A DNA stretch of 64,000 nt from Escherichia coli (GTDB taxonomy: Bacteria; Pseudomonadota; Gammaproteobacteria; Enterobacterales; Enterobacteriaceae). The DNA lies in assembly GCF_030384885.1 (NCBI RefSeq), contig NZ_CP128613.1, one strand, 5' to 3'. Below, piece after piece: positions 12,601 through 35,073 of the stretch. The notes below the pieces were generated by a model. It was not told where the DNA came from. It made no database searches and saw only the letters and a list, made by a program, of their open reading frames with translations. A program made the position numbers and the translations under genes. The first letter of the stretch is position 1; each line of letters starts with the position of its first letter.

Positions 12601-12634
12601 CGCAAAAAGGCTGGTGACTAAAAAGTCACCAGCC
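12601..12634 (-). terminator. rplL-rpoB intercistronic attenuator (partial terminator)
   Basis: Perfect 10-bp inverted repeat ggctggtgac / gtcaccagcc with a 6-nt loop, followed on the minus strand by a U-run; lies between rplL and rpoB where the known attenuator sits. Confidence 0.6.
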
Positions 12635-12673
12635 ATCAGCCTGATTTCTCAGGCTGCAACCGGAAGGGTTGGC

Positions 12674-19551: not shown

Positions 19552-20517
19552 TTATTTTTCTGCACTACGCAGGGATATTTCACCGCCCATCCAGGGTTTT
19601 ATTATTCCATCCTGCTCAAGCAATAAAGCGCCTTGTTTGTCTATTCCGCGTGAAATGCCAAATATTTCTTTATCACCAATGATAAGTTTCACTGGGCGAT
19701 TAATAAAATTATCCAGTTTTTCCCAGCGCGACAGATAAGGTGCCAATCCTTCTTGCTCGAAGAGTTCCAGCGCCGCACGTAATTCACGTATTAGCATGGC
19801 CGCCAACGCATTACGATCGAGATTGATCCCAGCTTCCTGCAGCGTGATCCACCCCTGATTAACGACACTCTCTTCAACACGACGCATTGCCATGTTGATC
19901 CCGGCACCAACGACTATTTGCGCCGCATCGCCGGTTTTGCCAGTCAGCTCCACAAGAATACCTGCCAGCTTGCGATCCTGCAGATAGAGGTCATTCGGCC
20001 ATTTAACACGAACTTTATGAGCGCCCAACTTGCGTAATACTTCCGCCATCACGATACCGATAACCAGACTTAAACCAATCGCCGCAGCCGGGCCTTGTTC
20101 CAGACGCCAGAACATCGACAAATATAAGTTTGCGCCAAAAGGTGAAAACCATTTCCGACCTCGGCGACCACGTCCTGCCTGCTGGTATTCAGCAACGCAG
20201 GCATCACCCGATTTAAGCTCTCCGATACGATCAAGAAGATACTGATTCGTGGAGTCAATAACTGGCAGCACGGCTACACTACCGCTATCCAGCTGACTCA
20301 ATATCTGTTCAGCATTAAGTAACTGGATGGGCTCAGGCAGGCTGTATCCTTTACCCGGAACGGTAAAGACATCAACGCCCCAGTCACGCAGTGTTTGAAT
20401 ATGTTTATTAATGGCCGCCCGGCTCATTCCTAACGTTTCACCCAGCTGCTCACCAGAGTGAAATTCGCCATTCGCTAATAGCGTGATTAATTTTAGCGGA
20501 ACGGTATTATCCTTCAT
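19552..20517 (-). CDS. birA: Biotin-protein ligase / biotin operon repressor
   Basis: 321-aa product [43 protein letters not shown]... (N-terminal HTH plus ligase domain). Confidence 0.95.
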
Positions 20518-21542
20518 GAAATCGTCTCCACTGCGCTAACTTCACCTGATGTACCAATAAAGCGAACTTCTGGCTCAAGCCAGACATTAAATTTTTCACC
20601 CACTTTCTGTCTTACATGATGTGCCAGCTGCACAATATCTTCGCTTTTTGCATTGCCTTCATTAATGAGAACTAACGCCTGTTGACGGTGTACCGCAGCC
20701 CCACCAATTTGTGTTCCTTTTAGCTGGCACTGATCGATAAGCCAACCAGCGGCCAGTTTTACTGAACCATCCGTCTGGGGATAATTTGGTGCTGTTGGAA
20801 ATTGTGCCAGTAATGCTTTAGCCGTTTCGGCAGATACAACAGGGTTTTTGAAGAAACTACCGGCATTGCCATTCACTTTTGGATCAGGGAGTTTGGTGGT
20901 GCGCATATGACACACCGCATCAAATACTTGCTGTGGCGTTACGGTTGTAGGATCCAGACGAGTTAAGTCACCATACGTTAGTACAGGTTGCCACTCTTTT
21001 GGCAGGCGCAGACCTACGGCTACAATGGCGAAGCGGTCCTGGTATTCATGTTTAAAAATACTGTCGCGATAGCCAAAACGGCACTCTTTGGCAGTTAAGC
21101 GCACTTGCTTGCCTGTCGCCAGTTCAACACAGTCAACATAAGCGCAAACTCGCTGTAATTCTACGCCATAAGCACCAATATTCTGGATAGGTGATGAGCC
21201 GACACAACCAGGAATTAACGCCAGATTTTCCAGACCTGGCATACCTTCCTGCAAAGTGTATTTTACCAGGCGATGCCAGTTTTCTCCGGCTCCTACATGT
21301 AAATACCACGCATCAGGTTCATCATGAATTTCGATACCTTTGATCCGGTTGATGATCACCGTGCCGCGATAGTCTTCCAGAAAAAGTACATTACTTCCTT
21401 CACCCAGAATAAGAACGGGTTGCCCTTCTGCGGTTGCATGCTGCCAGGCATTGAGTAGTTGTTGTTCGTCTTCGGCACATACAATGTGCTGAGCATTATG
21501 ATCAATGCCAAATGTGTTCCAGGGTTTTAAGGAGTGGTTCAT
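20514..21542 (-). CDS. murB: UDP-N-acetylenolpyruvoylglucosamine reductase
   Basis: 342-aa product [34 protein letters not shown]...; 4-nt overlap with birA. Confidence 0.95.
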
Positions 21543-21633
21543 AGCTGCTTTCCTGATGCAAAAACGAGGCTAGTTTACCGTATCTGTGGGGGGATGGCTT
21601 GTAGTTATGACGACAGGAAGAGTTTGTAGAAAC

Positions 21634-21664
21634 GCAAAAAGGCCCAGTCTTCCGACTGGGCCTT
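21634..21664 (-). terminator. rRNA operon intrinsic terminator (single T1/T2-like hairpin)
   Basis: Stem ggcccagtc / gactgggcc followed by a U-run on the minus strand, 13 nt after the 3' end of 5S rRNA. Confidence 0.65.
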
Positions 21665-21676
21665 CTGCTTAATTTG

Positions 21677-21796
21677 ATGCCTGGCAGTTCCCTACTCTCG
21701 CATGGGGAGACCCCACACTACCATCGGCGCTACGGCGTTTCACTTCTGAGTTCGGCATGGGGTCAGGTGGGACCACCGCGCTAAGGCCGCCAGGCA
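21677..21796 (-). rRNA. rrfB: 5S ribosomal RNA
   Basis: 120 nt; reverse complement reads TGCCTGGCGGCCTTAGCGCGGTGGTCCCACCTGACCCCATGCCGAACTCAGAAGTGAAACGCC...GGGAACTGCCAGGCAT. Confidence 0.95.
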
Positions 21797-21894: not shown

Positions 21895-24799
<2,905 letters not shown>

Positions 24800-24983
24800 T
24801 CACAACCCGAAGATGTTTCTTGCGATTCATCATCGTGTTGCGAAAATTTGAGAGACTCACGAACAACTTTCGTTGTTCAGTGTTTCAATTTTCAGCTTGA
24901 TCCAGATTTTTAAAGAGCAAATATCTTAAACATGACTCGTAAGTCATCTTTAACGATATCAAGGTCGGCGACTTTCACTCACA

Positions 24984-25059
24984 AACCAGCAAGTGGCGTC
25001 CCCTAGGGGATTCGAACCCCTGTTACCGCCGTGAAAGGGCGGTGTCCTGGGCCTCTAGA
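24984..25059 (-). tRNA. gltT: tRNA-Glu (16S-23S spacer tRNA)
   Basis: Reverse complement reads GTCCCCTTCGTCTAGAGGCCCAGGACACCGCCCTTTCACGGCGGTAACAGGGGTTCGAATCCCCTAGGGGACGCCA. Confidence 0.92.
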
Positions 25060-25154
25060 CGAAGGGGACGTATCAGTCTGCTTCGCAAGACGCCTTGCTT
25101 TTCACTTTTCATCAGACAATCTGTGTGAGCACTGCAAAGTACAGTTCTTTAAGG

Positions 25155-26696
<1,542 letters not shown>

Positions 26697-29715: not shown

Positions 29716-29955
29716 TGTAAAGCATCCACAATAGAAGAAGGATGCCGCAGGCTTCATCAATATTACGCGATGATGAGAACCAGATGCGACGTTAGCCGGC
29801 AGGTCTTCGGGCTTGGAGGGGTATATAAAATACTAAGAGATGATGACTTCCCACCGGATGGCAGTGTCCGCATAACGCAATCATCGCACCTTTCCTTACC
29901 GCTGCGCGTCAGCTCCAGATTTGCACTGGATTCCCTATTAACTCACAGGACCGGC
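29716..29955 (-). ncRNA. Cobalamin (adenosylcobalamin) riboswitch in the btuB 5' leader
   Basis: About 240-nt leader; minus strand begins GCCGGTCCTGTGAGTTAATAGGGAATCCAGTGCAAATCTGGAGCTGACGCGCAGCGGTAAGGAAAGGTGCG..., matching the known btuB leader. Confidence 0.8.
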
Positions 29956-30083
29956 GAGTGGATGCTACAGGTTGTAACAAGTTGCTGTCCAGACGTAGCT
30001 CACAAATAGGAATACATCAAGATCTGGACATCTGATGAGCAATCCCTACAATCGCCGCGTACATTTCATTTTCAGGATACATC

Positions 30084-34960: not shown

Positions 34961-35073
34961 GAAACGGAGCGGCACCTCTTTTAACCCTTGAAGTCACTGC
35001 CCGTTTCGAGAGTTTCTCAACTCGAATAACTAAAGCCAACGTGAACTTTTGCGGATCTCCAGGATCCGCTTTT
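34961..35073 (+). ncRNA. oxyS: OxyS small regulatory RNA
   Basis: Reads GAAACGGAGCGGCACCTCTTTTAACCCTTGAAGTCACTGCCCGTTTCGAGAGTTTCTCAACTCG...GCGGATCTCCAGGATCCGCTTTTTTTT, matching OxyS including its terminal hairpin and U-run; divergent from oxyR. The 3' end is approximate. Confidence 0.88.

Follow-up and report, generated by a model that had tools for sequence, protein, structure and literature searches.

A single terminator with T2-type flanks and a T1-like hairpin is a common allele at the rrnB-murB junction of Escherichia coli

The rrnB operon of E. coli K-12 carries a T1-T2 terminator cluster, as established in the early rrnB sequencing work. In the 64,000-nt stretch of E. coli DNA analyzed here (the window), a single hairpin stands between the 5S rRNA gene and murB, and an initial annotation described it as a hybrid with the flanks of T2 and the stem-loop of T1, arising either by recombination between the two terminators or as an ancestral single-terminator state. 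The questions raised by this locus are therefore whether the hairpin is likely to end rrnB transcription, whether its departure from K-12 is unusual, and how it arose.

The locus is the E. coli rrnB-murB-birA-coaA-thrU/tyrU/glyT/thrT neighborhood, with a cluster of four tRNA genes located further 3′ of birA, and murB is annotated in all of the matching E. coli records. The features are listed in Table 1. The 5S gene matched Rfam family RF00001 at 21679-21794 with a score of 93.2 bits, and the 3.25-kb murB-birA-coaA stretch together with the junction was 100% identical to that of E. coli 2013C-4282 (NZ_CP027579.1). An origin outside E. coli, considered when a first search gave a best match of 98% identity over 551 nt, was dismissed on the basis of the match over 3.25 kb. 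The 5S-murB intergenic region is 134 nt long and corresponds exactly to 21543-21676, with the murB ATG at 21542. The distance from the 5S gene to the hairpin was read as 14 nt, a trivial difference of one from the 13 nt given initially. The 3′ end of the 5S gene, AACTGCCAGGCAT, is the stretch that is partially duplicated in K-12-type tandem alleles. The spacer at 21543-21629 was nearly invariant in the E. coli alignment and presumably contains the murB promoter and ribosome-binding site; a simple scan gave no sigma-70 consensus match or murB promoter. Further Rfam matches in the window were to the OxyS sRNA (34961-35070, plus strand), a cobalamin riboswitch (29781-29970, minus strand), "Pseudomonas sRNA P26" (12608-12669, minus strand) and StyR-44 (24807-24915, minus strand, just upstream of the 23S gene), none of which is unexpected in this part of the E. 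coli genome or else falls within the feature.

Table 1. Features of the rrnB operon, its 3′ end and the adjacent genes in the window.
Feature	Position	Strand	Basis or remark
16S rRNA	25155-26696	minus	rRNA call
Spacer tRNA	24997-25069	minus	tRNA call
23S rRNA	21895-24799	minus	rRNA call
5S rRNA (rrfB), last rrnB gene	21677-21796	minus	ends from alignment to the 120-nt K-12 rrfB
Linker CAAATTAAGCAGAA, 14 nt, T2-type 5′ flank	21676-21663	minus	read directly and alignment
Terminator hairpin, 22 nt	21662-21641	minus	read directly, folding and alignment
Hairpin 5′ arm GGCCCAGTC	21662-21654	minus	
Hairpin loop GGAA	21653-21650	minus	
Hairpin 3′ arm GACTGGGCC	21649-21641	minus	
U-tract TTTTT, then GCGTTT	21640-21636 (TTTTT)	minus	read directly
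U-tract TTTTTGCGTTT, T2-type 3′ flank, expected release site	21630-21640	minus	
Terminator-murB spacer, 87 nt	21543-21629	minus	alignment
murB (UDP-N-acetylmuramate dehydrogenase), 342-aa ORF	20514-21542	minus	first gene 3′ of rrnB
birA, 321-aa ORF, overlaps the murB stop codon	19552-20517	minus	RefSeq annotation of NZ_CP027579.1; belongs to the murB-birA unit

The window hairpin has a perfect 9-bp stem, with seven G-C pairs, closed by a GGAA tetraloop. Its predicted folding energy was -26.8 kcal/mol (z = -4.25 to -6.3), and none of 200 shuffled sequences was predicted to be as stable. The UUUUUGCGUUU tract starts at the base immediately after the stem, and the T-run columns were invariant among 46 aligned sequences. 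In the minimum-energy fold, the GCAGAA of the linker (21668-21663) is able to pair with the U-tract, which lengthens the stem. A simple consensus terminator scan did not flag the hairpin, the likely reason being that the upstream A residues pair with the T-run and leave fewer than five T residues in the scoring window. Across species, changes on both sides of the stem (compensatory double changes) were found in 6 of the 10 hairpin pairs. For example, stem pair 6 is A-U in the window, G.U in O157:H7 and G-C in E. albertii, and stem pair 4 is U.G in T1, C-G in the window and in Kosakonia, and U-A in E. whittamii.

The hairpin has the GC-rich stem-loop, the adjoining U-tract and the compensatory substitutions of an intrinsic terminator, and it lies 14 nt 3′ of the 5S gene on the same strand, where the transcription unit is expected to end. 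It is very probably the functional Rho-independent terminator of rrnB in this genome, in the form of a common natural allele. The nascent RNA past the 5S sequence would fold into this hairpin, with its GC-rich 9-bp stem and GGAA tetraloop, immediately before the UUUUUGCGUUU tract, and the hairpin and U-tract would together destabilize the elongation complex, so that the rRNA precursor would be released approximately 40-45 nt past the 5S sequence and before murB. We infer termination at this site from the anatomy and predicted stability of the hairpin and from the conservation of its structure.

The junction was compared with rrnB of the K-12 strains MG1655 and a DH5alpha derivative (NEB5-alpha). 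In these references, the order after the 5S gene is T1, a spacer of about 130 nt, a partial copy of the 5S 3′ end, and T2, as described in the initial annotation. A 168-nt K-12 block consisting of T1, the spacer and the partial 5S end is absent from the window, and the intergenic distance is 134 nt versus 300 nt in K-12. The organization is thus not K-12-like: one hairpin was found, in place of two hairpins separated by a spacer of about 130 nt with a partial 5S duplicate, in agreement with the description of a single terminator at this position.

The K-12 T2 terminator (CAAATTAAGCAGAAGG-CCATCCTGACGGATGG-CCTTTTTGCGTTTCTAC) resembles that of the window in its position next to murB, its 5′ flank CAAATTAAGCAGAAGG, its 3′ flank CCTTTTTGCGTTTCTACAAACTCTT and its outer GGCC/GGCC stem base pairs, and the window linker is identical to the T2 5′ flank of both K-12 and E. 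coli B. The alignment showed that only the inner 14 nt of the window hairpin depart from K-12 T2: these are CAGTCGGAAGACTG in the window, whereas T2 has the 12-nt ATCCTGACGGAT, resulting in a 9-bp stem with a GGAA loop in the former and an 8-bp stem with a UGAC loop in the latter. Furthermore, K-12 T2 follows the partial 5S-end duplicate, whereas the window hairpin follows the genuine 5S gene. The window terminator therefore has the flanks and position of an rrnB T2 orthologue, but its core is GGCCCAGTCGGAAGACTGGGCC and not the K-12 core GGCCATCCTGACGGATGGCC.

The hairpin itself resembles T1, which in K-12 has the core GGCTCAGTCG(A/G)AAGACTGGGCC between the flanks CAAATAAAACGAAAGG ... TTTCGTTTTATCTG. 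The T1 hairpin GGCTCAGTCGGAAGACTGGGCC is also located directly 3′ of the 5S gene, and the window hairpin is identical at 21 of 22 positions to the T1 hairpin of K-12 rrnA, K-12 rrnD and DH5alpha rrnB, and at 20 of 22 to that of MG1655 rrnB, in which the loop is GAAA. In contrast to the window hairpin, T1 is extended by its own flanks to a 20-bp stem, pairs U.G at the position of a C-G pair in the window, and precedes a spacer of about 130 nt, after which come the partial 5S end and another terminator. Neither the long AAAACGAAAGG / CCTTTCGTTTT stem nor the spacer module of T1 is present in the window, and the match is restricted to the 22-nt core. The description of a T1-like stem-loop between T2 flanks was thus borne out. 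Within K-12, the T1 loop is GAAA in MG1655 rrnB versus GGAA in the DH5alpha-derived rrnB and in rrnA and rrnD, a difference that is consistent with gene conversion between operons.

The same arrangement of 5S gene, linker of about 14 nt, hairpin and U-tract, without the T1-spacer module, was found where a single T2 follows the 5S gene, as in rrnB of E. coli B/BL21, rrnG of K-12 and rrnA of 2013C-4282. These terminators differ from that of the window in having an ATCC-TGAC-GGAT core, and those of K-12 rrnG and 2013C-4282 rrnA differ also in their downstream flanks, which contain a REP-like element.

The frequencies of these alleles were evaluated with allele-discriminating BLAST queries against 5,426 complete E. 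coli genomes; the counts are approximate, being based on coverage and identity bands for purpose-built queries, with the single-T2 class obtained by subtraction. The window-type 53-mer with rrnB flanks was found in 2,141 genomes (~39%, a count that takes in O157:H7 and ST131 variants with 1-4 differences), the K-12-like long (tandem) allele in 2,521 (~46%), and a lone T2 of the K-12 type or a variant form, as in E. coli B, in about 700-750 (~14%). A single terminator is thus present at the rrnB-murB junction in ~53% of E. coli. An even-step sample of an earlier junction search, in which 23 of 39 rows were short and 16 were long, agreed with these values. The exact 152-nt junction was present in four genomes, and about 2,300 more had 95-99% identity to it. 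Because the window allele class occurs in ~39% of genomes, K-12 is not the norm at this junction, and the unusualness implied in the initial annotation was not upheld. In the library searched, natural variation of the rrnB terminator was not the subject of any paper. The element is of a known type, and its allele is very common.

To place these alleles in the family, species-representative genomes were scanned using the conserved murB N terminus as an anchor, yielding 83 loci, of which 28 were unclassifiable. Of the enterobacterial species, 45 could be assigned to a class: in 39, a genuine 5S gene is directly followed by a single terminator, three have a K-12-like tandem with a spacing of ~168 nt (Kluyvera genomosp. 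3, Klebsiella indica and Enterobacter sp. CC120223-11), and three are tandem-like, on contigs that begin inside a spacer, including that of Salmonella diarizonae. Within Escherichia, the single form was found in E. whittamii, Escherichia sp. E1V33 and E. coli E69. Whereas the hairpin core differs among species, the surrounding frame, CAAA-AAG-GAAG ... TTTTTGCGTTT, is kept. A hairpin with a T-run after it was predicted at each of the 45 outgroup junctions, with folding energies between -19.8 and -30.5 kcal/mol and a median of -25.4 kcal/mol. As judged from folding predictions, the window hairpin appears to be of ordinary, strong and family-typical strength, with a stability (-26.8 kcal/mol) between those of K-12 T2 (-22.7 kcal/mol) and T1 (-32.6 kcal/mol).

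A window-type core in a T2 frame was found in Kosakonia oryzendophytica, E. albertii, E. whittamii and a Pluralibacter MAG, and the first three have a CAGTC/GACTG-type core in common with the window. The 22-mer of the K. oryzendophytica rrnB-murB terminator is identical to that of the window, in a T2-type frame, although this identity could be due to independent conversion from a T1-type hairpin instead of shared ancestry. The E. albertii terminator, also in a T2-type frame, reads GGCCCGGTC-GAAA-GACCGGGCC, with compensatory stem changes and a GAAA loop relative to the window; the contig begins inside the terminator, and so E. albertii is informative about the core and not about the single or tandem state. 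E. whittamii and the Pluralibacter MAG have GGCTCAGTC-GAAA-GACTGAGCC, again with compensatory stem changes and a GAAA loop in E. whittamii. One 1.2-kb contig labeled "MAG: Flavobacterium psychrophilum" (QFQM01000754.1) contained an enterobacterial 5S end, a T2-type terminator and a murB sequence near-identical to that of Phytobacter, and is likely a contaminating or mis-binned contig.

The other rrn operons were compared in the same way. In K-12, the tandem is present at rrnA, rrnB and rrnD (after rrfF), rrnG has a single T2-type hairpin, and rrnE has a hairpin of its own; rrnC and rrnH run on into tRNA genes that have their own terminators and are for that reason less relevant to the comparison. 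For 2013C-4282, the window strain, the comparison covered rrnA, rrnB, rrnD and rrnE. It was found that rrnA of this strain has a single K-12-type T2 without the module, rrnE is as in K-12, and rrnD has a full tandem in which the T1 core (GGCTCAGTCGGAAGACTGGGCC) is one base different from the window-type single hairpin of rrnB.

In the E. coli genome set, the T1-spacer module is present in 3,977 of the 5,426 genomes, in 1-10 copies (median 2), and individual genomes have the window-type hairpin at as many as three sites. On each side of the 168-nt module is an 18-nt direct repeat derived from the 5S 3′ end (AACTGCCAGGCATCAAAT), and the module therefore may easily be gained or lost. In E. coli HS, the window-type hairpin is found at rrnE (NC_009800.1, ~4242719-4242900), followed by sequence like that downstream of K-12 rrnG (a REP-like element, CCCACATACGCCAGATTCAGCAACGGATAC), with yjaA missing and yjaB directly next, which suggests an inter-operon exchange or rearrangement at this 3′ end.

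Several observations bear on the module itself. In rrnD of 2013C-4282, a 153-nt insertion is present between rrfD and thrV (tRNA-Thr; L101 24743-24895), where K-12 has only 12 nt, and this insertion corresponds to the T1-T2 spacer module in a diverged form (GAGTAGGACAAA...TTTGAACGTTGCGAAGCAACGGCCCG.AGGGTG...CATAAACTGCCAGGCAT) that lacks the T1 hairpin. Contigs of Phytobacter diazotrophicus and Enterobacter sp. 10-1 have non-5S sequence ahead of a partial 5S end, and that of P. diazotrophicus ends like the T1-T2 spacer module (...GTGATTCATAAACTGCCAGGCAT). One possibility is that the module represents a 5S/tRNA-distal remnant that has decayed. Matches to the T1-spacer and T2 sequences were also obtained at 28-70 plasmid places in the complete-genome set, which presumably are rrnB T1T2 cassettes derived from cloning vectors.

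Of the two origins proposed for the single hairpin, the ancestral one is the better supported, given the 39 of 45 species with a single terminator. We consider it probable, though not firmly established because gene conversion can erase history, that the rrnB-murB junction ancestrally had a single terminator and that the core seen in the window is a variant of long standing; the polarity, with the single state ancestral and the tandem derived, is a parsimony argument from one genome per species. In this interpretation, a T2-frame single terminator would be the ancestral and majority arrangement at this junction in the Enterobacteriaceae, and homologous recombination or gene conversion would have added a cassette of T1, spacer and partial 5S end to some rrn operons and removed it from others. 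The hairpin at the T2 position would have had the window-type core as one of its old variants, which differs from the T1 core by a single U.G to C-G change and whose stem was kept whole by compensatory substitutions. Both the direction of change and gene conversion as its mechanism are what we infer from these comparisons.

The proposed recombination between terminators had a mixed outcome. A single crossover between T1 and T2 is excluded as the origin of the window allele, because it predicts a T1-type 5′ flank and both window flanks are T2-type. At the level of the population, rrn terminator cassettes do recombine, as seen in mosaic alleles of other strains. The rrnB operon of strain 06-00048 has T1, the spacer and the partial 5S end followed by a window-type hairpin in a T2 frame. 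In the rrnB 5S-murB interval of O103:H2 12009 (NC_013353.1, 4882224-4882525), a chimeric first terminator, in which the window-type core GGCCCAGTCGGAAGACTGGGCC is set between the 5′ flank of T2 and the 3′ flank of T1, is followed by the spacer and a normal K-12 T2; this looks like the expected product of a crossover inside the hairpin core shared by T1 and the window type, and the two-piece match pattern recurs in many STEC genomes. A further variant was observed at the rrnB-murB junction of O169:H41 F6326-C1, in which a single T2 hairpin has an inverted loop (GGCCATCC-GTCA-GGATGGCC, versus TGAC), as though the hairpin had been reverse-complemented, and its 5′ flank (CAAATAAAGCGAAAGG) resembles that of T1; the GTCA-loop form is also present in Escherichia sp. 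ESNIH1.

These mosaics bring up an alternative to an ancestral single terminator, namely that the window allele was derived by deletion from a tandem that already had the window core, with recombination between the 18-nt repeats removing the 168-nt block after the core had arisen by short-patch conversion of T2 by T1. The ingredients of such a history can be found: the direct repeats (AACTGCCAGGCATCAAAT) flank the block, the precursor architecture exists at rrnB in a handful of genomes (e.g., 06-00048), the rrnD T1 of 2013C-4282 is only 1 nt different from the rrnB hairpin, and the shared core demonstrably supports crossovers, as in O103:H2 12009. However, the precursor is rare, with about 14 top matches versus roughly 2,100 genomes that have the single form, and it could equally be explained as a single allele that gained the module; in addition, the outgroups are mostly single, and among them the lone terminator of E. 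whittamii has a related core. We therefore regard the deletion as unlikely. A far less probable explanation is that a T1-T2 tandem was collapsed in assembly, as an assembler might in principle be misled by the 18-nt repeat and the similarity of the two hairpins. The single organization recurs in 39 other species and in complete genomes that were assembled independently and number in the thousands, a collapse of T1 and T2 would yield a pure T2 or a T1 5′ flank and not T2 flanks around a distinct core, and the same assembly resolves the full tandem at rrnD. Together, these observations effectively refute a collapse, which the initial annotation had named as a finding that would refute its interpretation.

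A different kind of alternative concerns function, and holds that the single hairpin leaks rrnB transcription into murB-birA-coaA in a strain-specific way, resulting in a growth-rate coupling of these genes that differs from that of K-12. The murB-birA-coaA genes have been described as an insertion between the ancient rrnB and tufB operons (PMC6735719), a history that fits with such a coupling, as does the presence of one terminator rather than two between a very strong operon and a gene 134 nt away, and the variation in predicted stability among the window-type, T2 and T1 hairpins (-26.8, -22.7 and -32.6 kcal/mol). Yet the single terminator is the baseline, being in the majority in the Enterobacteriaceae and in ~53% of E. 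coli, and the alleles look like neutral mosaics shuffled by recombination. Functional tuning is thus improbable, and since the single terminator is the common state, no abnormal read-through or phenotype is expected in the window strain.

A broader version of the same idea is that the rrn 3′ ends of enterobacteria form a recombining pool of interchangeable hairpin cores and a 168-nt module (0-10 copies per E. coli genome), and that the combination present at rrnB in a given strain (single window-type, single T2, tandem or chimeric) alters leakage into murB-birA-coaA. We think it doubtful that the pool has this effect; if it did, there would be heritable strain differences in the growth-rate coupling of genes for cell-wall, biotin and CoA functions.

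The window feature itself matters little, as a normal intrinsic terminator in the form of a common allele. Although many cloning vectors contain the K-12 rrnB T1-T2 tandem, it does not represent E. coli as a whole: a single terminator precedes murB in about half of the complete genomes and in most enterobacteria, and therefore departures from K-12 at this junction should not be taken for anomalies. Of modest interest, as a by-product of the analysis, is the mosaicism that rrn terminator cassettes show at the level of the population. With its gain and loss of the module, swaps of hairpin cores and chimeric terminators, it would offer a convenient natural system for the study of short-patch gene conversion, and the rrn 3′ ends would be suited as well to studies of compensatory evolution in terminator stems and of read-through from one versus two terminators into essential genes.
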